From a candidate division WOR-3 bacterium (GTDB taxonomy: Bacteria; Hydrothermota; Hydrothermia; LBFQ01; DSFT01), in contig JBDRXL010000005.1 in NCBI GenBank assembly GCA_039802865.1, forward strand, positions 6,099 through 70,098: DNA of 64,000 nucleotides, read 5' to 3'. A program made the translations under genes and the position numbers. Positions 8,020 through 47,029 of this stretch are shown here, one piece after another; position 1 is the stretch's first letter, and every line of letters begins with the position of its first letter. A model generated the notes under the pieces. The model ran no database searches and had not been told where the DNA came from. It worked only from the letters and a program-made list of their open reading frames with translations.

Positions 8020-8038
8020 TTTTAAAATTTTAAAGCTT
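8020..8038 (-). repeat. Direct repeat copy containing a -10 box (tRNA-Ser promoter); partner at 9859-9877
   Basis: ttttaaaattttaaagctt vs ttttaaaattttaaggctt, 18/19 identical; the motif also resembles the genome-wide promoter consensus. Confidence 0.45.
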
Positions 8039-8040
8039 AT

Positions 8041-8653
8041 TCACCTTTTTATTTTACCTTTTGCTAATAGTGCATCTTTTATATATAGTTCTCTATTGCT
8101 AGCATTAAATTCATGTTTAACTTGAACTAAAAGCTTTTCCAAAGTATAAATTTGCCATGAAACTGGAATAAAAGCTTTTTTCCCTTTTCTCGTTTCCATA
8201 TCAAGTTCAAAACTCATTAGTAGGTGATAAGCATCCTTTGTTATTTTTGGATCCTTGGATGGTGAAAGAAAAAAGGTTCTAAAACTTTGGTTTTTTGTTA
8301 ACTTACTATAGGTTTTACAATCTAAGTACACCACAATTCCATTATCTCCCAATATTTCTATATCTGGGTATCCTGCTGTCTTTTTCTTGCCACTTCTAGA
8401 AATAGGTCTGTCCGCCTTTAATCCCACCTTTCTCAGTGCTTCTATAACAAAAGGCTCAATATGGTTACCTGCTTCATTCGGTCTTTTTGTAAAAATTCCC
8501 TCCTTATAAGCGTTCTGACCAGCAATAGTAGCAGCCTTTGATAATTTCTCCAACAGCACTTTATTTCGCTTAATAGTAAGTGCCTTCCAGAGGTTCCAAA
8601 AATTTGCTAATAACACTTTCCAGTTGTCTAATATAATTTTCTTTATAGCTCAT
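8041..8653 (-). pseudogene. Frameshifted type II restriction endonuclease (PD-(D/E)xK)
   Basis: ATG 8653 reads MSYKENYIRQLESVISKFLEPLEGTYY to a stop at 8570. The body (track ORF 8041-8616) is in another frame and has GYPDIE...YLDCKT. Directly downstream of an MTase. Confidence 0.7.
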
Positions 8654-8657
8654 AACC

Positions 8658-9857
8658 CTACCTCCTTATCTTTTGAAAAATTAAAATATTTTCTTTCTGC
8701 ATTACATTATAAAGTCCAAAGATAATTTTATTTATGTTTCTAATTAACCTAAACCCTATTTTTTCAGCATATTCAATTACAAACTCAACAGTTTTAACTT
8801 CTTGACCCATATAAGTAGCATTTCCAATAATAATAACTGCATACTTACTAGGTTTAAGAACTCTAAACATTTCGCTTAAACTTTTTTTCATATCTTCATT
8901 ATATAAATCTATTCTTTCTTTACCTTTACCCCTAACGCCAATAAATTTTTCTCTAAGCATAGATAAATTATAACCGAGTTCTCTTAAAGCATGTGCATCA
9001 TTTGAAACATAATCCAAAGCAACAGAATAAGGTGGAGAAGTAATTATCCCATCAATACTTTCATCTTCAAAAGGTAGTTTTCTTGCATCTCCAAGTCTTA
9101 TATCTACTTTACCTAGTTTCAAATTAAGCTCATTTACTAAATCAAAGTAATCCAATACAGAAGCTATCATCATCTCCAAATTCTTTAAAAATGAGATATA
9201 AAATTCTTTTTTTCTTCTAACATTATCACTTATAGCAACAAGTTTTGCCATCTTATAGAAATTTCTCACTCTCTCTTCAGGGATTGAGTTAATAATATCT
9301 TCGATAGCTTTTTCATCTTTATTAAATAAAGAAGTTTTTATTGTTTTAAATATATTCTCTTTCCACTCTATTATTTTTGCTAAAACATACACCGACTCAG
9401 TTTTTACCCTACTTTGAAGAACACAAAGAGGGGATATATCAACTCCTATACAATTTATTCCCAAAAGTTGGGCTTCAATAGCAGTTGTTCCACTACCAAT
9501 AAATGGGTCAAGAATAGTATCTCCCTCCTTAAGCCCAATAATATTCAAAAGCGCCCTTATCATCTGAGGATGAAACTTTCCCTTATAAGGATATATCCAA
9601 TGAGTAAGATATTGATTCACAGAACGTGTTCTATTTTTTTGAATAATATAAAAATAATCAGTAAATTCACCATTCACAGATTTAAAATATGCTAATCTTT
9701 TTCTAAGCTCACTACCATCATTCACTTTTAATAATTTAAATTCTCTTAAACCATCCGTTATTTCAAATTCTACTCCAAAAGACTTCAATTCGAGTTGAGC
9801 CAATGATAACTCATAAATAAACTGAACATTATCAAAAAGAATTAAGTGATTGTTCAT
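8658..9857 (-). CDS. DNA methyltransferase, probably N4-cytosine
   Basis: HWIYPYKGKFHPQM, motif I DPFIGSGTT, motif IV ITSPPY. Confidence 0.88.
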   Translation of the reverse strand: MNNHLILFDNVQFIYELSLAQLELKSFGVEFEITDGLREFKLLKVNDGSELRKRLAYFKSVNGEFTDYFYIIQKNRTRSVNQYLTHWIYPYKGKFHPQMIRALLNIIGLKEGDTILDPFIGSGTTAIEAQLLGINCIGVDISPLCVLQSRVKTESVYVLAKIIEWKENIFKTIKTSLFNKDEKAIEDIINSIPEERVRNFYKMAKLVAISDNVRRKKEFYISFLKNLEMMIASVLDYFDLVNELNLKLGKVDIRLGDARKLPFEDESIDGIITSPPYSVALDYVSNDAHALRELGYNLSMLREKFIGVRGKGKERIDLYNEDMKKSLSEMFRVLKPSKYAVIIIGNATYMGQEVKTVEFVIEYAEKIGFRLIRNINKIIFGLYNVMQKENILIFQKIRR

Positions 9858-9875
9858 ATTTTAAAATTTTAAGGC

Positions 9876-11006
9876 TTGTTTTTATCTGACCTTTCATTAT
9901 ATTTTCTCTTTGCCCCTGCTTACAATTATAAATTTCTAATTTATTCAGAAAACTCATATACATTAAATAACTTTCAAGTTGAATATAAAGGGAAGTTATA
10001 CTTTTTTAGAAATGATGTAAATTCATTTTCTCCAACTCAACTTTCTTCAAAATTCTCATATAGCTATAAAATAAATATGTTTAAACTCTTTATAGAACAT
10101 TTTTGTGAAAATACAATAAATTACAAGCCTTATGATATTAAGCGGTTTGATATATTGGGGTTAAAATATAGGAATCTTTCAATAGGATGGACATTTAATA
10201 AAAGATATGTAGATTATGAGTTTTGGTTTATTTATGAATTTCATTATTCATTGCTTAAAGGAAACTTTTATATAGGAATAAGCGAAAACTTTAAAAAATT
10301 CTATCCATTTATATCAATATGGCTATTAAACATTTCTGGTTTTGAAACAATTTTTAATCCAAATAGCGCTGATACACTAAACACAAAAGAAATACCATTT
10401 GATAATCCATTAAAATTATTTTTATTTGGTGCTAATAGTGGTTTAAATTCAATAAATGGTTATTTTGAAATAAGCAAATATATTCCTATAAACGATTATA
10501 TTTACAATTTCAATTACAAATATGCTGTAAATTTCTTACTAAAAGAAAAAATTTTATTTAAAACTTTTCTTGAAGCAAATTCAGTAACTCAATTAATATA
10601 CCCAAAATGGCTAATTTTACAAATTAGAGCATTATATAAAGGCTTTGGAATAGGTTTAAGTGAGCTTTATACAACAAATATAAGAGAAGATGATTTAATT
10701 TTTAGAAGAAGTGAGTATTTTTTAAACTTTTATAAAAGCTTTAAGTTTTTTGAAATAGATACAAGATATAGATTTATGAAAAGTGATAGTTTAAAGAGCT
10801 TTTATATGAATTTAAATGTTGATATTCAAAAATCTATATTTTTCTTAAATTCAAAATTTGAAATTATCAATAAAGATGTGGATATTTATCTCGGGATTAA
10901 TTATAAGCAGTTTAGAATTTATTATTTAAAGAAATTTAGAAATAAGGGAAGTTTTGATTATTTTTCAAATGAAGATGATTTATTTGGAATTTTAATTAAG
11001 CTTTAA
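9876..11006 (+). CDS. Hypothetical protein, possibly an outer-membrane beta-barrel
   Basis: 376-aa ORF with TTG start, aromatic-rich alternating strands, C-terminus DDLFGILIKL; no family motif recognised. Confidence 0.5.
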   Translation: MFLSDLSLYFLFAPAYNYKFLIYSENSYTLNNFQVEYKGKLYFFRNDVNSFSPTQLSSKFSYSYKINMFKLFIEHFCENTINYKPYDIKRFDILGLKYRNLSIGWTFNKRYVDYEFWFIYEFHYSLLKGNFYIGISENFKKFYPFISIWLLNISGFETIFNPNSADTLNTKEIPFDNPLKLFLFGANSGLNSINGYFEISKYIPINDYIYNFNYKYAVNFLLKEKILFKTFLEANSVTQLIYPKWLILQIRALYKGFGIGLSELYTTNIREDDLIFRRSEYFLNFYKSFKFFEIDTRYRFMKSDSLKSFYMNLNVDIQKSIFFLNSKFEIINKDVDIYLGINYKQFRIYYLKKFRNKGSFDYFSNEDDLFGILIKL

Positions 11007-11015
11007 AATTTCAAA

Positions 11016-11456
11016 ATGATTGGAACCTTAGTTCCTATTTTTGAAGGGATAGCAACAAATGGAGAAATAATTACAAATGAAACGATAAAAGGTAAATGGA
11101 CAATAATTTTCTTTTATCCAAAAGCTTTTACCCCAGGTTGCACAAATGAAGTTTGTAATTTAAGAGATAATTATTCAAACTTACTAAAATACAATGTAAA
11201 TATATATGGTATAAGTAGAGATGATATAGATACTCAAAAGAAATTTAAAGAGAAATACAATCTTCAATATGAGCTTATAGCGGACCCAGAGGGCAAAATT
11301 ATAAAAGCTTTTGGTGTAGCTGGAATTGGAGGAAATGCACAAAGAAAAACTTTTATAATAAATCCAGAAGGCAAAATTGTTTATATATTTGAGAAAGTTG
11401 ATACAAAAAATCACGCACAACAAATAGAAGAAGTGTTAAAAAATTTAATGAAATAA
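11016..11456 (+). CDS. bcp: Peroxiredoxin, BCP type
   Basis: FFYPKAFTPGCTNEVC, GISRD, RKTFIINPEG. Confidence 0.9.
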   Translation: MIGTLVPIFEGIATNGEIITNETIKGKWTIIFFYPKAFTPGCTNEVCNLRDNYSNLLKYNVNIYGISRDDIDTQKKFKEKYNLQYELIADPEGKIIKAFGVAGIGGNAQRKTFIINPEGKIVYIFEKVDTKNHAQQIEEVLKNLMK

Positions 11457-11457
11457 T

Positions 11458-12255
11458 TTGATAGGGGTTTTTTTAATTCCATTTGATAAAGGTGTAATTT
11501 CAAGACCAGGTTCTAAATTGGCTCCTAATAAAATAAAGAGTTATTTAATGAACCTAAATTTTAAAAATAAAGAAATACTAAAATTTTTTGAAATAGAACT
11601 TGAAAATTTTGACACTTACAAAGCTCATCAAGAAATTTACAATTTCATAAAAAAGCATTTAAATTATGAGTTTTATGTTTTTATAGGAGGAGACCATTCA
11701 ATTACATATGCAACATTTAAAGCTATAAATTCTACTCTTAAAAATCCCCTTATTATAAATATCGATAAACATTTTGATATTAGAGATTGGTCCTTTGATA
11801 ATATATCAAGTGGAACTTCTTTTAGTAGGCTTTTAGATGAAAAAATTATTGAACCTAAGCAATTGATAGAAATTGGAATAATGGATTTTTATAATAGCGA
11901 TTATTTATTTCAAAAAGCCAAAAATTATGGATTTGAATTTATTAAAATGCTTGAAATAAAGAAAAACTTTAAAGATGTTATTAAAAAAATAGAAGAAAAA
12001 ATGAAAAATTTTGATAGTATTTATTTGAGCATAGATATAGACGTGATGGATAGTTCAATATGTCCTGGAAGTAGTGCCAGCTCTCCTTTTGGATTAAGAC
12101 AAGAGGAAATTTTTGAGATAATAGACTTAATAATAAGTAGCAAAAAATTAAAAGCCTTAGATATTGTTGAGACAAATCCTCTTGTAGATTTTGATGATAA
12201 TACTTCCAAATTTTCCGCACTAATTCTTGCTTACATAATTAGTCAAATTAAATAA
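11458..12255 (+). CDS. Arginase/formimidoylglutamase-family ureohydrolase
   Basis: RPGSKLAP, GGDHS, IDKHFD, SGTSF, SIDIDVMD, PG, DIVETNP. Confidence 0.8.
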   Translation: MIGVFLIPFDKGVISRPGSKLAPNKIKSYLMNLNFKNKEILKFFEIELENFDTYKAHQEIYNFIKKHLNYEFYVFIGGDHSITYATFKAINSTLKNPLIINIDKHFDIRDWSFDNISSGTSFSRLLDEKIIEPKQLIEIGIMDFYNSDYLFQKAKNYGFEFIKMLEIKKNFKDVIKKIEEKMKNFDSIYLSIDIDVMDSSICPGSSASSPFGLRQEEIFEIIDLIISSKKLKALDIVETNPLVDFDDNTSKFSALILAYIISQIK

Positions 12256-12564: not shown

Positions 12565-12574
12565 TTTCACACTT

Positions 12575-12589: not shown

Positions 12590-12612
12590 AAAAAACAAAA
12601 AGGAGGTGAAGT

Positions 12613-12913: not shown

Positions 12914-12915
12914 TC

Positions 12916-19991: not shown

Positions 19992-20065
19992 TGGGCGCGC
20001 CCCGACTTGAACGGGGGACCTCCATCGTGTGAGGATGGCGCTCTTACCAGCTGAGCTACGCGCCC
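19992..20065 (-). tRNA. tRNA-Val(CAC), CCA not encoded
   Basis: GGGCGCG/CGCGCCC acceptor, GCTC/GAGC D stem, CCATC-CTCACAC-GATGG anticodon arm, GTTCAAGT T loop, discriminator A. Confidence 0.95.
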
Positions 20066-21180
20066 TTTTCTTTTAATTCCCTTAATAACTCATCCATTTC
20101 TTCCTTTATATGCCAAGGCATTTGAGCATAAACATCTTCAAATGTTGTTTCAGGTCCAGGTAAAGGTCTCTTTTCTGCTTCATCAATAGCTTTATTTAAT
20201 TCATCCTCAATCTGCTCATCTAGTTCTTTTTCCCATTCTTCATTCCAAATTCCAAGCCTTTGTAAATATAATCTTGCTCTCTTAATTGGATCCCATGTTT
20301 TTTGCCAATACTCAAGTTCTCTCGGATCTCTATACCTATCTGCTTGATCTGCTGTTGAATGAGAACCATATCTATAAGTTAAAGCTTCAATTAATACAGG
20401 TTCTTTGTTATGGGCTTTTTCAAATGCTAATTTAGTAGTAGCATAAACTGCCAAAAAGTCATTCCCATCAACATAATAACCTTCCATACCATAAGCAATT
20501 GCTTTAATTGCTATATTTTTAGAAGCATATTGTCTTTTAACAGGAACAGATATTGCCCAGTGATTATTTTGAACAAAAAATACAACTGGCGTTTTAAATA
20601 CCCCTGCCATTGTAAGAGCAGAATGAAAATCACCTTCCGCTGTTCCTCCATCTCCTACATAAACAATTATTGCTTCATCCTTTTTTAAATAATTTATAGC
20701 CATTCCTATACCAACCGCTTGTGGAAGCTGATTTCCAACAGGACTAGAAATAGTTATAATTCTTAATTTTCTCATACCCCAATGGACTGGCATTTGTCTT
20801 GCTTTATTAACTTCCATTCTACCCATTACTTGTGCAAACATTTCAACAAGTGGATAACCTCTTACAAGATAAACTCCATGCTCTCTATGAGCAGGAAATA
20901 TCCAATCATTTTCAGGCACTGCATAACCACTTGCAACAGTTGCAGCCTCTTGACCGGCAACTTCTACATAAAATAATGCTTTTCCAGAACGAGTTAAAAA
21001 CATTCCCTTTCTATCAAAAGCCCTTGTTAATTTCATATAATAATATAATGTCTTTAAATCTTCCTCGGTAAGTCCTATATCTTCTGGTGTAAAGTCAAAT
21101 AAAGGCTCTCCCTCACTTGATATAAATCTTATAGGTTCATCTGTAAATGGTTGAATATAATTTAAAGTTTTTTCAGTCAT
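20056..21180 (-). CDS. pdhA: 2-oxoacid (pyruvate or branched-chain) dehydrogenase E1 alpha subunit
   Basis: GQEA, GNQLPQAVG, GDGGTAEGDF..N (ThDP motif), YRYGSHSTAD. Confidence 0.85.
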   Translation of the reverse strand: MTEKTLNYIQPFTDEPIRFISSEGEPLFDFTPEDIGLTEEDLKTLYYYMKLTRAFDRKGMFLTRSGKALFYVEVAGQEAATVASGYAVPENDWIFPAHREHGVYLVRGYPLVEMFAQVMGRMEVNKARQMPVHWGMRKLRIITISSPVGNQLPQAVGIGMAINYLKKDEAIIVYVGDGGTAEGDFHSALTMAGVFKTPVVFFVQNNHWAISVPVKRQYASKNIAIKAIAYGMEGYYVDGNDFLAVYATTKLAFEKAHNKEPVLIEALTYRYGSHSTADQADRYRDPRELEYWQKTWDPIKRARLYLQRLGIWNEEWEKELDEQIEDELNKAIDEAEKRPLPGPETTFEDVYAQMPWHIKEEMDELLRELKEKGA

Positions 21181-21195
21181 AGTGAAAATTATAAA
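21171..21195 (-). repeat. Direct repeat copy (-10 box, start codon and first codons of pdhA); partner at 23223-23247
   Basis: Minus strand TTTATAATTTTCAC-TA-TGACTGAAA vs TTTATAATTTTCAC-AT-TGACTGAAA, 23/25 identical. Confidence 0.8.
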
Positions 21196-21202: not shown

Positions 21203-21761
21203 CTAATAAATCAATTTAAGTGTTTGTTTAAAAAATTGTTCTAAACTCATTTCACTTTTTATGAAATGTTTCAAAGAAGGTGTTAAATCTGTTTTATCTA
21301 TTCCATCACTTATTTTAACCTTGTTTAAATAAGACTCTATTCTCCTATTACTATAACCACTGGTACCAGGGCCTTTTCCTAAAATTTCTTCAATAATAAT
21401 CCGGTGAATGAAAAAATTTTTTCTATCTTCAAACAACTTAATATACTTCCCAGCGTTTAATATTTCCTCTTCTTTCAAAATAAAATCCAATACCAAGAGA
21501 CTTTATATTAGCACATTCTCCCAAAAGATTTTCAAAAAAATTATTAACATTTTGTTTATAACTCAATAGTAATATCAACCCGCTTAGGATAGTATCTTCC
21601 ATCTATAACTATCTCTTTTCCATTTAAGTAATTTACTTTATACCTATTGCCAAGAATATTCTGATAAGTTTCACCTAACCATGTATGAACTGGCCTAATT
21701 TTTTCTAAGATTCAGCCAAAGCTTTAAAAAAGCCTTCTTTTCTTATTTTTACATTGTTCAT
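21203..21761 (-). pseudogene. Degraded restriction endonuclease gene
   Basis: ATG 21761 gives MNNVKIRKEGFFKALAES then TAG at 21705. Later fragments (YYPKRVDITIE; SYKQNVNNFFENLLGECANIK) lie in different frames. Position directly after the MTase remnant. Confidence 0.55.
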
Positions 21762-23232
21762 AATATACCTCTTCTAAAAAACTATCTATAATATCTTTAC
21801 TTTCCTCTTTCCTTAAAAAATTTACTTGTTCTTGACTTAAATGCGGAATACCAAAGTTCATTAAAAATAACTTAGAATAACTTTTCCACCCACCCTGATA
21901 ACTTTTTGAAACATTTTCAATATAAATTTTCATAATTTTTGAATTTAAAATTTTCCTTAATAAGTATAAATCAGTAAAAGGCTCTATTTTAGGAAAAATT
22001 CCATATCCACTATAAAATGTTGTATCTTCTTTTTCACATACTACAAATGTTGGATTCAAAGCCATAGGTGGGGTCAATATTTTCCTTCCAAACGTTGTAT
22101 TTATTCCCTGTGTTCTCCCAAAAGCGAACCATGTTTCATAAGTTTTCTTACCTCTATCTCTATTTAAAAGTATATCTTTTACTCATCTTCCTGTATAATT
22201 TCGTAAGCCTTACTAACTTTTTTATATGGGAAAATTACTGACTTTTATTATCTCTTTTGTTATTTCCTTCTCTATCAAAAATTTTCTTCCATTGAAAAAC
22301 TTAACAAAATAATCACCTTCTTCAACTACATTTTCAATTATATAAATCTCATCTTTTAAAGTGGCAAGTCCTACTCTAATGTCCGCTATGTCTTTTAACC
22401 TATAAGCTTGATTTTCAATAGCTTGGATAATATCTCTATTACTTAAAACCCATATATTATGATTTAGTTCATCAAAGTATATCCTTTCACTATCCAAACT
22501 ATCCAATTTTTGAATCTGACTGGGATTTTTTACTTTTTTAAATATGAAATAGTTTTTCTTTCTCTTTGAAATTATTATTATAGAAGTATAAGCTGATACT
22601 TTGTCAAATACCTGAAAGTGGTCAAAATCAATTACCTCTTCAATTAGTTTGTTTTCCTGCAAAAATTTTCTTAAATTTTTCCTGCATAAGAGGTAAAATA
22701 ACTATTGGGTGTTATATAACCCAATTTTCCATTTTCATCTATTAATTCTATACCTAATTCTATAAATGGTATAAATATATCTGTATCTCCCTTTATAAGT
22801 TTCCAATGTTTTTTTATTAAATTTCGTGTATCATCATCCAAATTCTGTATTCTTACATATGGCGGATTTCCTACAACCGATTGAAATTTTTTATTTCCGA
22901 AAATTGATTTTATAAATGATTTATCTAAACTATTTTTCAAAAACGACAAGAGATAAAAGCTCCTTTGCTAACTATACCGCTTTTGAATCAATATCTATTC
23001 CAAAAATGTTATTTTCAACTATTTCCTTATAACTTTTTCCCGTTTTTTGCTTTAATTTAAATAATGCATCAAGAAGAAAAATTCCATTTCCACAAGCAGG
23101 GTCTAAAACCAAAATATCTTTTGATTCATTTTCCACTATTGTTTTTCTGTTTATATAATCAACTACGAATAATGGAGTATAAACTATTCCCTTTTGTTTT
23201 CTATGTATTTTTAATAATTTTCTTTCAGTCAA
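21724..23232 (-). pseudogene. Fragmented N6-adenine DNA methyltransferase (Eco57I/TaqI-like)
   Basis: Track fragments: 22972-23232 (GIVYTP, DPACGNGIFL, GIDID), 22671-22949 (VVGNPPY), 22222-22662 (DFDHFQVF, IRVGLAT), 21724-22077 (LNSKI, GGWKSY), in different frames. Confidence 0.85.
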
Positions 23233-23247
23233 TGTGAAAATTATAAA
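23223..23247 (-). repeat. Direct repeat copy supplying the -10 box and TTG start of the MTase remnant
   Basis: See partner 21171-21195. Confidence 0.8.
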
Positions 23248-33436: not shown

Positions 33437-35347
33437 ATGAACGACAGAACCATAGTTGTAGCAGGACATGTAGGAAGTGGAAAGACTACTTTAATTGCCC
33501 AAATTTTAAAAATTACAAATACTATACAAAAGGTAGAAAAAAGCTTGCTTGATTATGACCCTATTGAACAATCTAAAAATATGACTATAAACTTAAAAGC
33601 TTTCAGAACAAAGTATAAAGAATATGACTTTCAATTTATAGATACACCAGGATTTATTGAGTTTGAAGGTGAGCTTATGAGTGCGGTAAGAGTTGCTGAT
33701 AATATGTTAATTGTTGTAGATATTTCAATGGGAATAGAAGTCGGTATTGAAAGGGCATTTGAAGAAGCAAAAAAGTATAATATTCCTATATTTTTTGCAA
33801 TAAATAAGTGTAAAAGTTATGAAAAGGACCCACAAGAGATTTTAAATTTATTAAAAAGCAAATTTTCAAAACAAGTTCATCCTGTCCAAATACCAATTGG
33901 AATAGGTAGTAATTTTAATGGAGTTTTTGATATAATAAATGGAGATTATAATTTGCTTGATGAAAATCTAAAAAAACAAGCTACGGAAAAATATGAGGAA
34001 TTTATAGAAGCGGTAGTTGAAACAGATGATGAATTGCTTGAAAAATATATTCAAGGTGAAGAGATTAGCAAGGAGAAAATTCATGATATTTTTAGAAAAG
34101 CAGTAGATAATAGTTTGTTTTATCCTGTTTTATACATAGATGCATTAAGTGGAGTTGGGGTTAATGAATTATTAGATTTTATTGGAGAATATGGAATTTC
34201 ATTTAAAGAGAGATATGATGATAAGCCTTTTAGCTCATTATTGATATTTAAAACATATTCAGAAGCTCATCTTGGAGAAATGTATCTTTTTAGAGTTTAT
34301 TCAGGAAAAATTACAACTGGTATGGAATTAAAAAATAGTAGAACAGGTACAATTGAAAAAATATCACATATATTTATTCCTTTTGGAAAGGAAAGAAAGG
34401 AGATAAATGAGTTAAAAATGGGAGAAATTGGACTTGTCTTAAAACTTAAAGATAGCAAAACAGGTGATACCCTTTCAAATGATAATATAACTTATGATTG
34501 GATAGAATATCCAGAACCATTATATGTAATAGGAATAAAGCCAAAAACTAAAAAGGATGAAGAAAAACTTTCAGAATCATTACAAAAAATTATGGCAGAA
34601 GACCCAACTTTTACATTTAAATATGACCCAAGTTTAAAACAAACATTATTTTATAGTCAGGGTGAAGTTCATACAAATATCATCTTAGAGAAATTAAAAC
34701 AAAGATTTTCAGTTGAAGTTGAAAAGGAAAAAGCAAAAGTTCCATATAGAGAAACAATTAGAAAGCCAGCAGAAGGACTTGGAAAATACATTAAGCAAAC
34801 AGGCGGTAGAGGTCAATATGGTGTTGCCAATATAAGAATTGAGCCACTTCCAAGGGGTGCAGGTTATGAATGGGTAGATAAAATTTTTGGAGGTGCAATA
34901 CCAAAGGAATATAGACCCTATGTTGAGCAAGGGGTTAAAAAGGCTATGGAAGAAGGATTTGTTCTTGGTTATCCAATTATAGATGTAAGAGTCATATTAT
35001 TTGATGGAAAATATCATGAAGTTGATTCTTCTAACTTAGCTTTTGAAATAGCAGGAAGTTTAGCTTTTAAAGATGCAGTAAGCAAAGCAGAACCATATAT
35101 GCTTGAACCTATTTATAATGTTGAGATTTATTCACCAGAAGAATATATAAGTGATGTAATATCTGAAATAAATACAAGAAGAGGTAAAATTATGAGTATT
35201 GAAAGTAATAAAATTAGTGCTCAAATACCACTTGCAGAACTATACGATTTCTTACCAGCTCTTAGGGCAAAAACAAAGGGAAGAGGGAGATTTAAGATGG
35301 AATTTTCACATTATCAGGAGGTTCCTATAAATTTAGTAAAGCAGTGA
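33437..35347 (+). CDS. Elongation factor G paralog (EF-G2-like)
   Basis: GHVGSGKTT, DTPG, INK, EDPT, VPYRETI, KQTGGRGQYG, HEVDSS, LEPIY; degenerate switch I. The second ATG fits the -10 spacing. Confidence 0.85.
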   Translation: MNDRTIVVAGHVGSGKTTLIAQILKITNTIQKVEKSLLDYDPIEQSKNMTINLKAFRTKYKEYDFQFIDTPGFIEFEGELMSAVRVADNMLIVVDISMGIEVGIERAFEEAKKYNIPIFFAINKCKSYEKDPQEILNLLKSKFSKQVHPVQIPIGIGSNFNGVFDIINGDYNLLDENLKKQATEKYEEFIEAVVETDDELLEKYIQGEEISKEKIHDIFRKAVDNSLFYPVLYIDALSGVGVNELLDFIGEYGISFKERYDDKPFSSLLIFKTYSEAHLGEMYLFRVYSGKITTGMELKNSRTGTIEKISHIFIPFGKERKEINELKMGEIGLVLKLKDSKTGDTLSNDNITYDWIEYPEPLYVIGIKPKTKKDEEKLSESLQKIMAEDPTFTFKYDPSLKQTLFYSQGEVHTNIILEKLKQRFSVEVEKEKAKVPYRETIRKPAEGLGKYIKQTGGRGQYGVANIRIEPLPRGAGYEWVDKIFGGAIPKEYRPYVEQGVKKAMEEGFVLGYPIIDVRVILFDGKYHEVDSSNLAFEIAGSLAFKDAVSKAEPYMLEPIYNVEIYSPEEYISDVISEINTRRGKIMSIESNKISAQIPLAELYDFLPALRAKTKGRGRFKMEFSHYQEVPINLVKQ

Positions 35348-36168
35348 AATTTCTAATTACAGGGGCTGGTGGATTACTTGGTTCTGAATTTAATAAAGTT
35401 GTTGTAGAGGAAAAATTAGCTTTAAAAAGAACTGATTTAGATATTACAAATTTTGAAGATGTTTATAAAATTGTAAAAAATTATAAACCAGATGTAATTA
35501 TAAATTGCTCCGCTTTGTCTAATGTAGATTATTGTGAGGAGCATTTTGATGAGGCAATAAATGTAAATGCAAAAGGAGTAGAAAATCTTTTAATTTCAGC
35601 TATTGAAAATAAATGTTTTTTAGTTCATTTTAGCACAGATTATGTATTTGATGGAAATAAAAACTCACCATATACAATTTATGATATTCCAAATCCTATA
35701 AATAACTATGGAAAAAGTAAGCTTATGGGTGAAGAAATTGTCAAAAATAGTAAATATGAAAATGTTTTGATAATTAGAACAAGTTGGCTTTTTGGAATTG
35801 GAAAAAGCTCATTTGTTAGTAAAATTTTAAATATGATAAATAATGAAGTAATTTATATGACGGAACAGATTTCAAATCCTACATATTCAAAAGATTTAGC
35901 AATAAGAGTTTATAAAATGATAAAACAAGGCTATAAAGGATTGTTTCATTTAACTGGGGCTTTAAGTGTATCAAGATATGAATTAGCAAAATATATTTTA
36001 GATATTGTTGGTTATAAAGGGAAAATAATAAAAGTAGAGAATTTTCCATCTATTGCAAAAAGACCAAGATATTCAAGCTTAGATAACTACCCCCTTGAAC
36101 CTTTAAGAGATTATAAAGTAGCAATTAAGGAATTTTTAAAGGAGTTTTATAATTTTAGAACTTTATGA
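35344..36168 (+). CDS. rfbD: dTDP-4-dehydrorhamnose reductase
   Basis: ITGAGGLLG, FSTDYVFDG, YGKSK, RTSWLFG, RPRYSSLD. Confidence 0.92.
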   Translation: MKFLITGAGGLLGSEFNKVVVEEKLALKRTDLDITNFEDVYKIVKNYKPDVIINCSALSNVDYCEEHFDEAINVNAKGVENLLISAIENKCFLVHFSTDYVFDGNKNSPYTIYDIPNPINNYGKSKLMGEEIVKNSKYENVLIIRTSWLFGIGKSSFVSKILNMINNEVIYMTEQISNPTYSKDLAIRVYKMIKQGYKGLFHLTGALSVSRYELAKYILDIVGYKGKIIKVENFPSIAKRPRYSSLDNYPLEPLRDYKVAIKEFLKEFYNFRTL

Positions 36169-36174
36169 ATAAGC
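36146..36174 (+). repeat. 29-bp perfect direct repeat, left copy
   Basis: tttataattttagaactttatgaataagc is identical to 38325-38353. Confidence 0.92.
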
Positions 36175-37583
36175 AAAGAGAATTTGGGATTCATCTTACT
36201 TCTACTGATATTTTTAGGGAATATATTTTGCCTGAAATTAAGGACGTGCTTTATAAATATACCTGGATAGATTTATTTGCTGGCGAAGGAAATTTAATCC
36301 TACCAATATTAGAGTTAATACCTAAGGATGAAAGAGTAAGCTTCTTTAAAGAGCATATTTTACTTTTTGATATTCAGCTGTAAATGGTTGAAAAGAGCAT
36401 TATAAATGCTATGAGCTATGGGATTCCTTATGAAATAGCTATGAAAAACATAAAAGTAAAAGATACATTATCTGATTATCCAGATTTAAGTTATCTTAAA
36501 TATCCACCATATCATATAACAAATCCACCTTATCTTTATGTGGGTTATATTTCAAAAAATTCTAAAAGAAATCTAAAGTATTTTTCTGGGTTAAATGAGG
36601 GTTATCAAGACCTATATCAGATTGCTTTAATGAATGATTTAAGGCATAACTTGGAAAGAATGATATATATTATTCCTACAAATTTCTTATTTGGTTTTTC
36701 CGTATCTAACAAAATTAGAAGAGATTTTCTTGAATTTTATAATATAAAAAAGGCAATTATTTTTGAAAGAAAAATTTTTGATTTTACTGGAACAAATGTT
36801 TGTATATGCTTTTTTGAAAGAAAACCTAAACCTTCAAGAGAACCAATTTCATTTAATGCTTTAAAAATAAATAGTAAAATTTTTGATAAAAAATATACCT
36901 TATATCCTGAAAATTCTTATAGAGCTGGAAGTGAATTTGAAGAATTTGTATCCCATTTCAAATCCAATTCACCTTTAAAAGTAAAGTTTTATTTAACCAT
37001 AGATGAGGTTGAAAAAAATCAGGGTAATAAGGAGGTTAAACTTTTAGATGCAAATAGCTTTCATAATGGTCGTTATCATATTATAAAGTGTTGTGTTAAT
37101 GAAAAGTTATATGAAAAATTGCAAAAAAATCCTTTATTTATAAGAACTTTGGATACAGGAAGTTGGAATGGAAGAGTGGGAATATATAATATTAAAGAGG
37201 TTTTTAATACTGATGGAATAGTGGTAACAAAAGAAAAATATCGCACTCATCCTATCCAAATTTTTATATCACCACAACTTTCATATGATGACTTGGACTT
37301 ATTGAAAAAATACTTCAATACAATGTTGGAATATTTTAGAAAAATAACTGATAGTGAGTTTTTAACAACTTTCAAGTATTCAGATTGTGATTATGTTAGG
37401 AAATACTTAGGATTATCACAGGCAGGAAAGTTAATAGAAACTTTTCCTATTCATTTAATGTCCTCTCAAAAAAAGCAAATGTTGAGAACTTTGTTGGAAA
37501 AGGGAGATATAGAAGGTATAAAGAATATTTTATTTGATTTCAAACATAAAAAACAAATTACCCTTTTTCAGGATTATGAATAA
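36165..37583 (+). pseudogene. N6-adenine DNA methyltransferase interrupted by one in-frame TAA
   Basis: 36165-36383 (DLFAGEGN, FDI) and 36384-37583 (TNPPY) are in the same frame, junction CTG TAA ATG. Confidence 0.82.
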
Positions 37584-38331
37584 ATGGATTGAAAAAAGTA
37601 TAAAATTGGCAAAAAGTGAGTTCTATCTGGATAAATTATTAGAGATATATCCACCAGAGGAAATTAGTAGAGAAAAACAAGTAGAGAGAGAATCTCCAAT
37701 TTTAAAAAGGCTCTTTCAAGAAAAGAATTGTAAAAAACTTCTTAGAGAACTTATACGCCTAAAGAAAATAGGGTTTAAATTTCCCATTGAAAATCCATAT
37801 ATTAGTTTTCTAAGTTATTATGAAGATGCTATTGACAAGAATCCAGAAACTATTAAGAAAATTTGTGAAAAGCTTTTTGAAATGAGTTATGATGAACTAA
37901 AAGATAGGTTGGAAGCACCAAAAAAGGCAAGTAGAAGAACTGGGCCAATGTTTAAATTGTGGCTTAGAAGTAAATTTAATTTTATAGATGTTAATGAATT
38001 TAGGAGAGCAAAGGGTATAGTTTTTCTAAATGGTGGAGATAAATTTTTAAAAGAATATGCAAAAAGTGAGTTAAAATGTAAATTCAAAGAATTAAGTAAA
38101 GGGTTGGACTTTATAGCAAGGGTTAAAAATAAGTATATAATTGGAACTGCAAAATTTATAACCGACATAGGTGGTTCTCAATCTAACCAATTTATTGAAG
38201 CATTAAGCTTAATAAAGGAAACGAAATGCTCTGAAAATATTATAAAAATTGCTATTATTGATGGTGCTCCTTGGTTAAATGAAAAAGAAAAAAATGAATT
38301 TTGTTTTAGTGCCTTAAACTATCCTTTATAA
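37576..38331 (+). CDS. Putative type II restriction endonuclease
   Basis: Coupled to the MTase stop; KGLDFIAR..YIIGTAKFITD.GGSQ, IAIIDG. Confidence 0.65.
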   Translation: MNKWIEKSIKLAKSEFYLDKLLEIYPPEEISREKQVERESPILKRLFQEKNCKKLLRELIRLKKIGFKFPIENPYISFLSYYEDAIDKNPETIKKICEKLFEMSYDELKDRLEAPKKASRRTGPMFKLWLRSKFNFIDVNEFRRAKGIVFLNGGDKFLKEYAKSELKCKFKELSKGLDFIARVKNKYIIGTAKFITDIGGSQSNQFIEALSLIKETKCSENIIKIAIIDGAPWLNEKEKNEFCFSALNYPL

Positions 38332-38353
38332 TTTTAGAACTTTATGAATAAGC
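38325..38353 (+). repeat. 29-bp perfect direct repeat, right copy (-10 box and first codons of the mutase subunit)
   Basis: Identical to 36146-36174. Confidence 0.92.
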
Positions 38354-38760
38354 CAATTAAGGTGTTGATTGGAAAGGTTGGTTTAGATGGTCATGATAGA
38401 GGAGCAAAAGTTTTGGCAAGGGCTTTAAGAGATGCAGGAATGGAAGTTGTATATAGTGGTCTTCATAGAACTGCAGAAGAAATTGTTCAGATGGCAATTG
38501 ATGAAGACGTTGATGTAATTGGTATATCTATATTATCAGGAGCTCATATGACGTATTTTCCAAAAATTCTAAAACTTATGAAAGAAAATGGTCTTGAAGA
38601 TGTTCTTTTAATTGGAGGAGGAATTATTCCAGAAGAAGATGCAAGAGAATTAGAAAATATGGGTGTTAATAAAATTTTTGGACCCGGAACTCCACTTGAA
38701 GAAATTATAAGTTATATTAAGAATTGGTATGAAAAGAAGAAATTAACAATTGTTAGATAA
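38344..38760 (+). CDS. Cobalamin-binding subunit of a methylmalonyl-CoA mutase-type enzyme
   Basis: [10 protein letters not shown] (DxHxxG), [20 protein letters not shown]. Confidence 0.92.
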
Positions 38761-40835: not shown

Positions 40836-40884
40836 ATAATTTAGTTTTATACCATTAATTAAGTTTTAAAGGTTTAAAATTTCA

Positions 40885-40966
40885 AGCTTCCATTTAGGAA
40901 GTTGTCACAAGCTTAGCGTTGTAATAATGCCCTCCACCCACACCCCTTTGGGGGTGGGCTAATCAC
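40885..40966. other. Two intergenic hairpins, each followed by TCAC (terminator or IS200/IS605-like end remnant)
   Basis: CTTCC-ATTTA-GGAAG then TTGTCAC; CCCAC(A)CCCC-TTT-GGGGGTGGG then CTAATCAC. Confidence 0.4.
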
Positions 40967-42771: not shown

Positions 42772-42805
42772 TTAGTTTAAAATTTTAAAGCTTTATAATT
42801 TTCAA

Positions 42806-45514
42806 ATGCTTGAACTTATCCTTCTTACTTATTTTGGGAAAAATAAAATTCAATATAAGGATTTTGATTGGAAGATTGCCCAAAGTGAGCATTTTAAAGT
42901 ATTCTATTATGATGGTGGTGAATATCTAAAAGACTTTGCAATTGCTGTTTTAGAAGAAGCTTTTGAGGAATATAAAACAATAATGCCAAGAATTCCAAGA
43001 GATAAAATTCCTGTTATAATTTATAATTCCGCAGAAGATTTTAGACAAACAAATGTTATATTTGATTTAATTGATGAGGGTGTTGGTGGATTTACAGAAG
43101 TTTTCAAAAATAGAATTGTAGTTCCATTTTTTAATTCTTATGAAGACTTTAAACATGTTTTAAGACATGAATTAGTTCATGCATTTCAATATGAAGCTTT
43201 ATCTACTACTGGCTCTTTATTATCAAATGTTGGAAGAATTCCACTTTGGGTTATGGAAGGTATGGCGGAATATGTTTCAATTGGTTGGGATATTACAGGA
43301 GAAACATTTATAAGGGATTTAGTTTTAAATGATTTAATTGTTCCTGTTGAAAATTTATCCTATTATGGAGGATATTTAATTTATAAGCAAGGACAAGCAA
43401 TTTATTATTTTATTGAAAAGGAGTATTCAAGAACTAAACTTAAAGAATTTATATCAAATGCCTTAATGATGTATGACTTAAATAATGCAATTAGAAGAAC
43501 ATTTAATATGTCCATAGAAGAGTTTTCAAGAAAATTTAATATATTTTTAAAAGAACGATATTATCCAGATTTAAGAGAATTTAAACTTCCTTCAAATATT
43601 GTAAGAATTACAAATAGTAGAAAAGGTCAAGGTTATTTTAATATAGCACCCGCTATTGACCCAGATGCAAATAAAATTGTTTTTATTTCTGATAGAAGTG
43701 ATTATAGTGATATTTATATATCAACTATTACTGGTTCTTCACAAAAAAGAATTATTTCTGGACAAACAAAACCAGATTTAGAAAATTTACATCTTCTCTC
43801 TGCAAGAATATCCTTTTCAAATGATGGTAATTATTTTACTTTTATAGCAAGGGGGAAAGGTTATGATATTATTTATATTTCAGATACAAAAGGTAAAATT
43901 ATTAGGAAAATTGAGCTAAAAAAATTAGATGGAGCAAACTATCCAAAATTTTCAAGAGATGATAAATTTATAGCTTTTATTGGATTAAAAGATGGAAAAC
44001 AAGATGTTTATTTGTATAACTTAAAGACAAATGTTTTAAGAAGACTTACAAATGATTATTTTAATGATTTGTTCCCAACATTTGACGAAGAAGGGAATAT
44101 ATATTTTATAAGCGATAGAAATGAGAGTATTTATAATTTTGGAAATTATGCAGTTTTTAAATATGACATAAAAAATGATAGTATTCATCAGATAACACCA
44201 TATTTTGGTAAAATTCATTATTTTGATTTAAGGAATGGAAACCCTGTTCTTTCACTTGAATATAAAGGAACAATTAATGTTTTTGAATATAAAAATAATA
44301 AACTTTATATGCTAACGAACTTCCCAAGTGCTGTATATAGCTTTTCATTTGATAAAACAGGAGAAAAAATGGTTATTAATTTACAATATGAAGGAGCAAG
44401 AGAAATTTTCTATGTGCCTGAAATTAGAATTTTAGATAGCATAGATATACCAAATAGTAATTTTATGAGTTTTAAGGTTTTGGATTATAAGAATTATAAA
44501 TATAAGACGGAATTTTCATTAAGCTGGCTTTCAGGAATTGCAGTTGGAAGCAATTTAGGGCTTGGAGGATATGTTACATTTGGATTTAGTGATTGGACTG
44601 GTGATAACTGGATTATATTCCAAACTCAATCATATATTACTGATATTTCAAATGCTATATTTTTCTTTGATTATTTATATCTTAAAAAGCGCTGGGATTT
44701 AGATGCATCCGCATACCAATACTGGTCAATAAGTTATTTAGATAAATATAACTCATTCTCATATGATAAAATTTTGGGCTCTAATCTATTAGTTTATTAT
44801 CCTTTTAATAGATTTGATAGGCTTGAATTTGGAATTTCTTACAATTATTATACAAGGTATATTGGGAATTTTACATTCATAGGATTTTTATATGATTCCA
44901 TTTTATATAGGCATGGTTTAAGTGGTTATGTTGGATTTTCAAGGGATAAAATTTTATATTATCCTTGGGGACCTGTTCAAGGGCATGGGTTTTTTATAGC
45001 ATTTCAACCATATTTACCTTTTTCACAAATCAAAAATCATATTATTTATGGTGATTTTCGCTATTATTTAAGATTTGCTAAAAGATATACTCTTGCTTTT
45101 AGAACCATAGGTTATAAGTCTTTTGGTGAAGATAGAGAGGGAACAATATTATATGGACCTGATTTAATTAGAGGTTGGACACTTGATACAATTTTAATTG
45201 GAAATAATGCTTTTATCACAAATTTAGAATTTAGATTTCCTTTTATTGATTATTTAAAGCTTGGTTTTCCTATTCCTTTAACTATATCTTCTATAAGAGG
45301 AGCAATTTTTTATGATATAGGTTCTGCTTGGTTTGATAATGATTTTAAGTTTTTTGATAATGATAGTTTATATACACCAAAATCCGCTTTTGGCTTTAAT
45401 ATCTCTGTATTTTTAGGATTTGGAAATATATATCTTACTTGGGCTTGGCGCACAAACCTAAAATATACTGAAAGTTCCCCTAATTTTAGTATATATTTTG
45501 GATTGGATTATTAA
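42806..45514 (+). CDS. Outer-membrane protein: peptidase MA-like domain, TolB-like propeller and BamA/TamA-like barrel
   Basis: YFGKNKIQY, HELVHAF (HExxH), WVMEGMAE, PD40-like repeats, C-terminal FSIYFGLDY. Confidence 0.8.
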   Translation: MLELILLTYFGKNKIQYKDFDWKIAQSEHFKVFYYDGGEYLKDFAIAVLEEAFEEYKTIMPRIPRDKIPVIIYNSAEDFRQTNVIFDLIDEGVGGFTEVFKNRIVVPFFNSYEDFKHVLRHELVHAFQYEALSTTGSLLSNVGRIPLWVMEGMAEYVSIGWDITGETFIRDLVLNDLIVPVENLSYYGGYLIYKQGQAIYYFIEKEYSRTKLKEFISNALMMYDLNNAIRRTFNMSIEEFSRKFNIFLKERYYPDLREFKLPSNIVRITNSRKGQGYFNIAPAIDPDANKIVFISDRSDYSDIYISTITGSSQKRIISGQTKPDLENLHLLSARISFSNDGNYFTFIARGKGYDIIYISDTKGKIIRKIELKKLDGANYPKFSRDDKFIAFIGLKDGKQDVYLYNLKTNVLRRLTNDYFNDLFPTFDEEGNIYFISDRNESIYNFGNYAVFKYDIKNDSIHQITPYFGKIHYFDLRNGNPVLSLEYKGTINVFEYKNNKLYMLTNFPSAVYSFSFDKTGEKMVINLQYEGAREIFYVPEIRILDSIDIPNSNFMSFKVLDYKNYKYKTEFSLSWLSGIAVGSNLGLGGYVTFGFSDWTGDNWIIFQTQSYITDISNAIFFFDYLYLKKRWDLDASAYQYWSISYLDKYNSFSYDKILGSNLLVYYPFNRFDRLEFGISYNYYTRYIGNFTFIGFLYDSILYRHGLSGYVGFSRDKILYYPWGPVQGHGFFIAFQPYLPFSQIKNHIIYGDFRYYLRFAKRYTLAFRTIGYKSFGEDREGTILYGPDLIRGWTLDTILIGNNAFITNLEFRFPFIDYLKLGFPIPLTISSIRGAIFYDIGSAWFDNDFKFFDNDSLYTPKSAFGFNISVFLGFGNIYLTWAWRTNLKYTESSPNFSIYFGLDY

Positions 45515-45516
45515 AT

Positions 45517-46176
45517 ATGATTAAAATTGTAAATTTATCAAAAAGTTTTGGAAATAAAAAAGTTTTAGAGAATGTAAATTTTGAAGTAAGTAAAGGAGAG
45601 TTTGTTTTTATAATTGGGGAAAGTGGTATTGGAAAGACGACATTATTAAAGCATTTATATTTAGAGGAATTTGCTGATAGTGGAGAAATTTATATATTTA
45701 ATAAGTTAATAGATAAAAATATCAAACAAAAGGAAATTCAACTTTTAAGAAGGAAAATTGGAGTTATATTTCAAGATTATAAAATTTTGCCTGATAGAAC
45801 AGTTTATGAAAATGTTATTTTGCCTTTAAGATATATGGGCTTATCAAAAGCTGTTTGTGAGGAAAGAGTTGAATTTGCTCTAAAATTTACAAAACTTATT
45901 GAAAGGAAAAATGACTATCCTTATTATTTATCTGGTGGAGAACAACAAAGGATAGCAATTGCAAGAGCAATAGCTAGACAACCAGAAATTTTATTAGCAG
46001 ATGAACCAACGGGAAATTTAGATTTTAACACTTCATTAGAAATTTTAAAAATTTTAATTGATTTGAATTTTCAAGGTATGACAATAATTATGGCAACACA
46101 TGATTTAGAGTTAATTAAGTATTATGACAATGCAAAAGTTTATAAAATTGAAGGTTATAAAATTGTAAAGCTTTAA
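45517..46176 (+). CDS. ftsE: Cell-division ABC ATPase FtsE-like
   Basis: GESGIGKTT, LRRKIGVIFQDYK, LSGGEQQR, LADEPTGNLD, MATHD. Confidence 0.75.
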   Translation: MIKIVNLSKSFGNKKVLENVNFEVSKGEFVFIIGESGIGKTTLLKHLYLEEFADSGEIYIFNKLIDKNIKQKEIQLLRRKIGVIFQDYKILPDRTVYENVILPLRYMGLSKAVCEERVEFALKFTKLIERKNDYPYYLSGGEQQRIAIARAIARQPEILLADEPTGNLDFNTSLEILKILIDLNFQGMTIIMATHDLELIKYYDNAKVYKIEGYKIVKL

Positions 46177-46212
46177 AATTTCAAAAAGTGTATTTTAAAG
46201 AGGAGGTTTAAA

Positions 46213-46770
46213 ATGAACAAAGAAAATGTAAATGTAGCTTTTGAGTTACTTCTTGAAGAGATTGAGAGTGTTATAAATGAGTTGGATAAAGAGGCTGAAA
46301 AGGCTCTTAAAAATTCTGATTATGAAAATGCAAAAGAAACTATTGAAAAAATAATAAAATTAACAATATTCAGGGAAAAAGTTAAAGAACTTAAAAAAGA
46401 ATGGGGGAGTTTCCTTATACCTACTACTACAATAAAAACTTATAAAAAACTTCCAAGAGGTTTAAGAACTCCAGAAGATGAATTTATAATTCCTATACTT
46501 GAAAGTATAGAGGAACTCGGCGGTAAAGCTCCAATGAGGGAAGTATTAAAGAAGGTTGAACAAAAAATGAGAAACAAACTTAATGAATATGATTACGAGG
46601 AACTTCCTTCAGAACCATCTAAAAAAAGATGGGAAAATACCGCTCAATGGTGTAGAAACACATTAGTAAGTGAAGGATTACTTTCTAACAATTCTCCACG
46701 TGGTATATGGGAAATAACTGATAAGGGAAGAGCTTATTTATTTAAATTTAAGAAAAATAATGTATCTTAA
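46213..46770 (+). CDS. Helical N-terminus plus Mrr N-terminal winged-helix domain, no nuclease domain
   Basis: PILESIEELGG, RWENTAQWCR..LVSEGLL..PRGIWEITDKG; SD gaggagg. Confidence 0.72.
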   Translation: MNKENVNVAFELLLEEIESVINELDKEAEKALKNSDYENAKETIEKIIKLTIFREKVKELKKEWGSFLIPTTTIKTYKKLPRGLRTPEDEFIIPILESIEELGGKAPMREVLKKVEQKMRNKLNEYDYEELPSEPSKKRWENTAQWCRNTLVSEGLLSNNSPRGIWEITDKGRAYLFKFKKNNVS

Positions 46771-47029
46771 AAAGGTTGTAATTGTTAATAAACTTGGTAT
46801 TCATGCAAGACCTGCTACAAAAATAACAGAAATTGCAAACAAATTTGTTTCAGAAATATATATAGAAAAGGATGGAATGGTTGCAAATGCAAAAAGTATC
46901 CTTGGTATTTTAATGTTAGTGGCTCCAAAAGGAACTGAACTAATAATAAGAGCAGAAGGACCCGATGAAGTAGAAGCAGTTGAAAGTATTGCAAAAATAA
47001 TTGAAGAAGGTTTTGGAGAGGAAATATGA
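46760..47029 (+). CDS. ptsH: Phosphocarrier protein HPr
   Basis: GIHARPA (His15), NAKSILG (Ser46). Confidence 0.95.
   Translation: MYLKKVVIVNKLGIHARPATKITEIANKFVSEIYIEKDGMVANAKSILGILMLVAPKGTELIIRAEGPDEVEAVESIAKIIEEGFGEEI

Follow-up and report, generated by a model that had tools for sequence, protein, structure and literature searches.

Restriction-modification cassettes flanked by short direct copies of host gene boundaries in a compact candidate division WOR-3 genome

The DNA stretch analysed here (the window) comprises 64,000 nucleotides of a candidate division WOR-3 bacterium (assembly GCA_039802865.1, contig JBDRXL010000005.1, here called C5, positions 6099-70098) and carries several small restriction-modification (R-M) cassettes lodged between host genes. 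The genome to which it belongs (G000) amounts to 1.64 Mb in 54 contigs, with about 26% GC and a coding share of about 91%. Its expression signals are packed into approximately 20 to 30 bp. The consensus expression unit consists of an extended -10 box, GCTTTAAAATTTT, followed by 6 to 10 nt and the start codon, and TA[AT]AAT is found 6 to 10 nt before the candidate start in 521 of the 1443 long open reading frames (ORFs). The aligned promoter consensus, aaGCTTTAAAATTTTAa, has no -35 element; it is about 17 nt long and strongly conserved, with a core that is nearly identical at hundreds of loci. The core TTTTAAAATTTTAAAA is partly palindromic and gives TAAAAT on both strands, as at 9860-9879 and 8021-8040. 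An earlier reading of the window from its letters alone (the sequence-only reading) had called the genome leaderless, and at the level of the sequence this is upheld, as the short distance between -10 box and start at so many genes largely agrees with a leaderless architecture of the GeneMarkS-2 group C type. The same reading had proposed that defence cassettes are inserted, by a general mechanism, at the units that combine promoter and start codon, and had pointed to clear duplications of the downstream gene's expression signal at 36-38 kb and 21-23 kb and weaker ones at 8-9.9 kb and 46.2-46.8 kb.

The cassette at 36-38 kb lies between rmlD (35344..36168, plus strand) and the gene for a B12-binding protein (methylmalonyl-CoA mutase small subunit, 38344-38760). 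It consists of an N6-adenine DNA methyltransferase gene (N6_Mtase, 36165..37583) and a gene for a Tsp45I-family restriction endonuclease (37534..38331), both on the plus strand, and it is bounded by an exact 29-bp direct repeat, TTTATAATTTTAGAACTTTATGAATAAGC, at 36146-36174 and 38325-38353. These are the sole two copies in the 1.64-Mb genome. Copy 1 (36146..36174, plus strand) contains the last codons and the stop of rmlD (..FYNFRTL*, with an ATGA overlap) and provides a -10 box, an ATG and the first three codons for the methyltransferase, whose reading frame continues directly from the copied MNK codons (MNK|QREFG.., continuing QREFGIHLTS...). Copy 2 (38325..38353, plus strand) is where the B12-binding gene has its native promoter and start, a unit that is conserved across the genus. 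The stop codon of the restriction gene lies within this copy, and the last ten or so residues of the enzyme have been replaced (FCFSAL|NYPL*). In all four relatives from the genus (G001-G004), CTTTATAATTTTAGAACTTTATGAATA.. occurs once before the B12-binding gene, whatever lies upstream of it. G003 retains the order EF-G, rmlD, B12-binding gene without the cassette; there rmlD ends with KEFLSLDS*, and a spacer of 43 nt separates it from the B12-binding gene. An exact, genome-unique repeat of a unit that the relatives carry once thus bears out the proposed duplication of the downstream expression signal. A homologous cassette in G048, 74% identical and without flanking repeats, shows that the methyltransferase and restriction genes of G000 are trimmed at both ends, the methyltransferase lacking about 38 N-terminal residues. 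A scan of genome contigs for Tsp45I-type cassettes elsewhere gave just two distant loci.

The cassette at 36-38 kb has not stayed intact. An in-frame TAA (36381-36383), with an ATG directly after it (36381-36386), splits the methyltransferase into 72 and 399 aa, the sequence reading DIQL*MVEK in G000 versus DIQKEMVEK in the G048 homologue. This stop is common to all five cassette-bearing assemblies that were compared, and the restriction gene stays open. The Tsp45I-type system is either dead or has a methyltransferase that works as two pieces. Conspecific assemblies were found by exact-protein look-ups and are about 97-100% identical to G000 over the fetched loci, mostly at least 99%. Among these strains the locus of the B12-binding gene has two alleles, one with the cassette and a short one, no clean empty site, in which the initial 12 nt of copy 1, four degraded pieces from the 3' part of the restriction gene, and copy 2 are left. 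Cassette loss at this locus is by untidy, scar-leaving deletions and not by crossover between the 29-bp repeats. As G000 is a metagenome-type assembly of 54 contigs and 29 bp is near typical k-mer sizes, an assembler could in principle have joined foreign R-M contigs to the host at shared 29-mers. Five or more independent assemblies, obtained from four sources (NCBI, ENA, JGI and Logan), nevertheless show the cassette-bearing structure in identical form, the flanks are 99-100% identical across strains, and the second allele retains the scars of the Tsp45I-type cassette. We regard an artefact of this kind as having next to no probability.

At 21-23 kb, a minus-strand repeat of the form TTTATAATTTTCAC[TA/AT]TGACTGAAA[A/G]AA is found at 21168-21195 and 23220-23247, with 25 of 28 positions identical. 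Between the copies lies a decayed fused R-M gene of the Eco57I/TaqI_C type (type IIG-like; 21203..23232, minus strand), which is now broken into five ORF fragments. Within the upstream copy (23220..23247, minus strand), a small HEAT-like ORF ends (..IYNFHID*) and the decayed methyltransferase has its TTG start and its MTE codons. The downstream copy (21168..21195, minus strand) is the native promoter-start unit of an E1 dehydrogenase gene (20056-21180). This unit is conserved in the genus and the family as GCTTTATAATTTTCA[CT]TATGAC.GA.AAAAC, the MTEK N-terminus is native to the E1 orthologues, and in G003 the amidohydrolase gene directly abuts the unit. Here too the duplication claimed earlier stands, given the 25/28 match and a unit that is single copy in six relatives. 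Judged alone, the repeat is marginal, as its variable part matches at 15 of 20 positions and about 1.5 such pairs are expected genome-wide. Next to this cassette, the segment 23233-26096 holds genes that are extra with respect to G003, namely the small HEAT-like ORF and an SBBP beta-propeller gene, sorted by the type IX secretion system (T9SS), with a DUF7948 fragment. This indicates that 21.2-26.1 kb is a composite of several insertions.

The locus at 8-9.9 kb is more complicated. An N6_N4 methyltransferase gene (8658-9857) and a gene for an MjaV-family restriction enzyme (8041-8616) occupy 8041..9857 on the minus strand, between two copies of TTTTAAAATTTTAA[A/G]GCTT at 8021-8040 and 9860-9879 that match at 19 of 20 positions. 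The copy at 8021..8040 (minus strand) is the promoter of a pair of tRNA-Ser genes (7829-8015), with AAGCTTTAAAATTTTAAA as its 18-bp core. The copy at 9860..9879 is a palindromic two-way promoter unit serving the M.MjaV-like methyltransferase gene (ATG at 9857, minus strand) and a 376-aa gene (TTG at 9876, plus strand). With a distance of just 19 nt between their start codons, these two divergent, leaderless genes are apparently both driven from this unit. The exact 18-mer of this repeat is found 15 times in G000 and equals the promoter consensus; judged alone, the repeat is indistinguishable from that consensus. The restriction gene of G000 has a 56-bp deletion at about 8577-8583 (C5:14675-14681) relative to strains L089, L091 and L096. 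The enzyme has 222 aa in these three strains and 191 aa, from a GTG start, in G000, where the partner methyltransferase is intact. Cassettes also decay in place.

Comparison of strains gives the repeat at 8-9.9 kb a different weight. Strain L088 (GCA_039802805.1) contains an extra cassette of 2077 bp, composed of a 280-aa ORF and a Dam-like MethyltransfD12 gene, between the MjaV restriction gene and the tRNA-Ser pair, with an exact duplication of the 18-bp tRNA promoter, AAGCTTTAAAATTTTAAA, on both sides. The same site is empty in L089 and G000. At the tRNA side, the junction in L088 carries 11 of 12 nt of the 5' end of the 376-aa gene (32/35 overall), which indicates that one promoter at this locus has undergone more than one event. 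What distinguishes L088 from the other strains is a precise promoter-to-promoter gain or loss whose direction cannot be told. Apparent extra DNA in L091 and L094 turned out to be scaffold gaps of N. The comparison with L088 raises this case from a match of consensus quality to a duplication that is probably genuine. Of the weaker duplication that the sequence-only reading saw here, the repeat itself is present and is not above chance when taken alone, and it is L088 that reveals the promoter as a duplication point. Precise loss by recombination between the repeats, which had been suggested as well, fits this one allele pair and does not fit the B12-binding-gene locus with its untidy deletions.

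The fourth proposed duplication, at 46.2-46.8 kb, is not supported. The gene at this position (46213..46770, plus strand) encodes a protein with an Mrr_N domain only and lies outside the phenomenon, as it is not flanked by any real repeat, is preceded by a Shine-Dalgarno leader (GAGGAGG), and is fixed in all conspecific assemblies. In line with the sequence-only reading, no integrase or transposase gene was found among the approximately 59 window ORFs scanned against Pfam, which are all but five at 57.7-64 kb and some short ORFs. Elsewhere in the window, a 41-bp strain indel was seen at about 40868-40910 (absent from L080), in the spacer between the genes for an ABC permease and a metallo-beta-lactamase-fold protein.

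Four more repeat-flanked cassettes are present in G000 outside the window, so that the pattern, although narrower than had been proposed, is commoner in this genome than the window alone suggests. The nearest, 0.3 kb to the left of it (C5:3812/5740), has an exact 36-bp repeat around an N6_N4_Mtase gene and an RE_MjaI gene (3828-5769). This repeat contains no -10 box; it covers the final five codons of a 113-aa gene (..ENEEK*) together with the first ten of pmbA/tldD (MKKNELFSIA), and the methyltransferase begins with the same ten residues as pmbA. In each of the six relatives pmbA directly follows the 113-aa gene, which makes this the cleanest empty site. On C2 (67317/69834), a repeat matching at 30 of 32 positions flanks genes for a 612-aa methyltransferase and a 213-aa protein before gyrA; it includes the upstream stop and the gyrA -10 box and ends short of the start codon. 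On C14 (36746/38282), an R and M pair is flanked by a repeat of about 30/36 that covers the promoter and the first 15 or so nt of a tRNA gene, and the first codons of the restriction gene (MSSRLIE) derive from the tRNA sequence. The repeat on C24 (7638/8638; 28/29) includes promoter, ATG and the codons for MVI, and it surrounds a 74-aa ORF and an S-adenosylmethionine (SAM) methyltransferase gene. In a relative, G002, the 20-bp repeat flanking a cassette consists of the 3' end of valS only and has no promoter-start unit.

Several other repeats and insertions were noted along the way. The repeat that flanks a methyltransferase locus in G004 belongs to an element resembling miniature inverted-repeat transposable elements (MITEs). 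This intergenic element, ..AATTATTGGACAAAGCA.., has GC-rich hairpins and recurs in G002 and G004 (also in L003, L046 and L047); it flanks the M and R pair in G004 (L069, G004:C6 6162-6191 / 8611-8640) and lies upstream of several core genes. In G000, a 75-bp direct repeat (74/75) at C44:275-349 and 4583-4657 surrounds 4.3 kb with a HerA/FtsK-like P-loop ATPase gene and small ORFs. Possibly this segment is a plasmid or virus that has integrated and is bounded by att sites; it is unrelated to the cassettes. CRISPR arrays with the 30-bp repeat GTTTAAATTCCACATAGTTCAGATAAAAC are located at C15:40-800, C17:18050-19000 and C17:37900-39150. The gyrA gene (C2:69872-72997) contains an apparent intein, inserted after ..AAYRY|CLTGDALV.., in an ORF of more than 1040 aa.

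The cassettes share a number of regularities. Six of the approximately 22 DNA-methyltransferase loci in G000 have a flanking target repeat, and the seventh cassette, on C24, has the generic SAM methyltransferase only. All nine cassettes (the seven of G000, the one of L088 and the one at valS in G002) are oriented like the downstream gene, for which the chance probability is about 0.004. The four repeats that include a start codon all give an in-frame first ORF (chance about 0.01), and in a fifth case, on C14, the first ORF begins within sequence that was copied from the tRNA gene. In three cases the first gene is a methyltransferase gene that is fused in frame to the first 3 to 10 codons of the host gene. 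The last gene of the cassette often ends at a stop codon within the downstream copy. Repeat lengths are 18, 20, 20, 28, 29, 29, 32, 36 and 36 bp, and beyond the promoter consensus there is no common motif.

Because the promoter is so highly conserved, it had to be considered that the repeats are merely independent copies of it, followed by common AT-rich first codons and unrelated to insertion. About 12 neighbouring promoter pairs are expected to share at least 18 exact bases, and this explanation indeed accounts for the 8-9.9 kb pair judged alone, for the 46.2 kb "repeat", and for the pairs C21:7634/9308 and C39:3036/5013, which flank core genes with a match of consensus level only and were rejected. 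When the variable 20 nt after the promoter were compared between 1105 neighbouring same-strand promoter-start units and random pairs, no general excess of similarity was found (6 pairs observed versus 4.3 expected at 14/20 or more), so a general likeness among neighbouring units is rejected. The single outlier is the 29-bp pair, which matches at 19 of 20 variable positions where 0.14 such pairs are expected genome-wide. The 36-bp pair has no promoter at all, the copied N-terminal codons are native to the orthologues of the host genes, and the relatives have single copies and no cassette. Taken together, the empty sites and the uniqueness in the genome refute chance for the 29-bp and the 36-bp pairs, and for the phenomenon as a whole we consider coincidence very improbable.

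Genome-wide searches point in the same direction. Repeats scoring at least 24 were found at 3 of 22 methyltransferase loci versus 9 of 400 random 700-bp segments, the control matches not having been inspected individually and probably including paralogue and CRISPR repeats. In an ungapped search for direct repeats spaced 0.3-8 kb apart, from which CRISPR and paralogue repeats were removed, six junction-type pairs remained: the 75-bp pair of C44, three at DNA-methyltransferase loci, the pair on C24, and one two-way promoter of consensus level. At a control spacing of 20.3-28 kb, no repeat scoring at least 24 was left after the same removal. Exact runs of at least 20 bp numbered 17 versus 3.8, the excess being mostly due to beta-propeller or other paralogue repeats and CRISPR arrays, and the repeat pairs on C31, C43, C16, C35, C9 and C40 were rejected as tandem paralogues. 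Flanking repeats are thus enriched at R-M cassettes and are not a property of promoter units in general. The genome-wide enrichment that the sequence-only reading called for is therefore seen at methyltransferase loci and not among promoter-start pairs.

Our explanation, to which we assign a probability of about 0.72, is that R-M cassettes of 1.5-2.5 kb have been inserted, without a recombinase of their own, at boundaries between host genes with direct duplication of 18-36 bp of the target, and that the overlap with expression units is the result of compact architecture and selection. The repeats and their host origin, the empty sites in relatives, the trimmed cassette ends at 36-38 kb, the shared orientation, the in-frame fusions and the presence or absence of cassettes among strains were all observed directly. 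The duplication itself may arise from a staggered break with fill-in or from a template switch during replication. After insertion at a boundary, the upstream copy would transcribe the first gene of the cassette and, where it reaches the start codon, would also start its translation, and the downstream copy would keep the host gene working. The two copies would also retain stop codons, by which the upstream host gene and the last gene of the cassette are each terminated. Possibly, only insertions that spare both neighbours and express the methyltransferase persist. With about 91% of the genome coding and the signals packed into 20 to 30 bp, a duplicated piece will usually be the whole expression unit of the downstream gene. 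We attribute the overlap mainly to the fact that hardly any intergenic DNA lies outside such units, and to the need of the cassettes to be expressed. That expression units are duplicated upon insertion, as had been claimed, is supported by their single copy in the relatives.

Some results do not fit this explanation easily. The step that generates the duplication is our inference, and fill-in of a staggered break and template switching are both possible. No clean empty allele of the 29-bp site is present among the conspecific strains examined, and two exact-pattern scans of metagenomes, one for the empty junction and one for the B12 promoter-start unit, gave no matches. To the left of copy 1, G000 differs from G003, the only relative with an empty site there, as G003 has about 32 extra nt and a different tail of rmlD, and a simple target duplication at the 29-bp site is for this reason inferred rather than proven. 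A search for Ku in G000 (92% complete) found no match, which weakens a classical end-joining route. At 20 N6_N4 methyltransferase loci in the four genus relatives, no promoter-start duplication was found; flanking repeats of any kind were limited to the valS case of G002 and the MITE-like case of G004. Moreover, the -10 box of both in-window repeats is of the rarer type, TATAAT, and the two repeats start at the identical promoter position, which, together with the use of one promoter more than once, hints at a site preference.

A promoter-start unit of about 25 bp might even be a general socket for recombinase-free cassettes. Insertion would then perhaps be directed to promoter DNA that is opened or bent by RNA polymerase, and the shared cores would afterwards be integrase-free attachment sites for excision, transfer and re-integration. 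The recurrence of the pattern at six of about 22 loci is in line with the general part of what the sequence-only reading had proposed. The unit is not a specific target, as is clear from the 36-bp repeat without a -10 box, the valS repeat, the repeat on C2 that stops before the start codon, and lengths that vary from 18 to 36 bp. Since promoter-free repeats exist and lengths vary, a mechanism that recognizes promoter-start units is not required, and we consider a true socket improbable.

We also give a low probability to the possibility that the promoter core of about 18 bp is itself a portable attachment site, so that a segment between two promoters loops out and re-integrates at any promoter by short-homology recombination or, after DNA uptake, by homology-facilitated illegitimate recombination, in the manner of an integron but without an integrase. 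This would explain why the difference between L088 and the other strains amounts to exactly one promoter copy and the DNA in between, and why the promoter at the 8-9.9 kb locus has been used twice. The remnant of the 376-aa gene at the L088 junction also suggests that pre-existing promoter copies were involved, rather than a fresh cut in foreign DNA. The promoter 18-mer is frequent in G000, and a ComEC-type competence domain is present, but the latter was also found in 11 of 14 control genomes and discriminates little. The 29- and 36-bp repeats, however, are locus specific, unique in the genome and reach into the coding sequence of the host, and foreign DNA could not have brought them. Promoter-free repeats, the lack of a general excess of similarity between neighbouring promoters, and the loss of the cassette at the B12-binding-gene locus by untidy deletions and not by a crossover between repeats also argue against it. 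Within the insertion with target duplication that we favour, repeats built from the shared promoter core could still act later as short-homology crossover points.

These structures match an already described class, the "R-M insertion with long target duplication", in which long, variable and locus-specific repeats flank R-M genes without mobility genes and the empty site holds the repeated sequence once (PMC2853133; Furuta, Abe & Kobayashi 2010, NAR 38:2428); the class is also credited to Nobusato et al. 2000 (Gene 259:99). Members were defined by R and M homologues, an insert of less than 20 kb, no mobility genes in or beside it, and a repeat exceeding 30 bp that is present once where the site is empty, and some published repeats overlap the 3' end of a gene, with partial M and R genes reported (PMC2853133). 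In our genome, R and M genes occur together as N6_Mtase and Tsp45I at 36-38 kb, at C5:3828-5769, as N6_N4_Mtase and MjaV at 8-9.9 kb and, fused and decayed, at 21-23 kb. The inserts are likewise small (1.5-2.5 kb), with no integrase or transposase domain among the approximately 59 window ORFs scanned. Empty sites are those of C5 in six relatives, of L088 in L089 and G000, of 36-38 kb as a single copy in G001-G004 (with the different left flank) and of 21-23 kb in six relatives. Against the cut-off of more than 30 bp, the repeats measure 36 bp on C5, 32 bp on C2, about 36 diverged bp on C14, 29 bp at 36-38 kb, 29 bp on C24, 28 bp at 21-23 kb and 18-20 bp at the tRNA promoter and valS. Both solid repeats in the window (29 and 28 bp) are just below this arbitrary limit of PMC2853133. 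Compared to the published class, then, the repeats are shorter (18-36 bp), and they coincide with the -10 box, start and first codons of the downstream gene, which leads to in-frame methyltransferase fusions. The host also differs, being an uncultured lineage with leaderless genes and 26% GC in which about a quarter of the DNA-methyltransferase loci show the pattern. The text of PMC2853133 contains neither the word "promoter" nor the term "start codon".

Other known systems resemble the cassettes in part. Like integron cassettes, which are promoterless, are expressed from a resident promoter and have a recombination site on each side, they obtain a promoter from their surroundings; unlike them, they have no IntI integrase, attC hairpins or common platform, as each cassette copies the local promoter. 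Transposons and insertion sequences (IS) are also flanked by a direct target duplication, which is typically 2-14 bp, of fixed length for each element, and accompanied by terminal inverted repeats and a transposase. Here the duplications are 18-36 bp, no transposase was found, and inspection of the junctions by eye, without a systematic scan, gave no convincing terminal inverted repeats. The cassettes contain no tyrosine or serine recombinase gene of the kind that marks integrase islands at tRNA or att sites, a type to which the unrelated element on C44 may belong. Homology-facilitated illegitimate recombination has reportedly been described in naturally transformable bacteria by de Vries and Wackernagel in 2002. 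In that process one homologous anchor and a microhomology integrate foreign DNA, which could explain the spread of promoter-bounded cassettes between strains, such as that in L088, but by itself it creates no target duplication.

How R-M systems move without a recombinase is a question that has been standing since 2000. The species studied here represents an unusually dense natural data set for it: its 1.64 Mb hold seven cassettes with recognizable duplications, its strains differ in one additional cassette and in a scarred remnant, and sister species have empty sites. A consequence not mentioned in PMC2853133 is that in a compact leaderless genome the duplicated target is the expression unit of the neighbouring gene. 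Insertion would therefore spare the host gene and express the incoming methyltransferase, sometimes as an N-terminal fusion, and a newly arrived R-M system needs immediate expression of its methyltransferase to avoid killing the host. If the bias towards promoters is mechanistic rather than selective, it would indicate a new route of gene capture. If promoters do act as sockets, cassettes would circulate by way of promoters much as they do in integrons, and a foreign gene would gain a promoter and a start codon at once.

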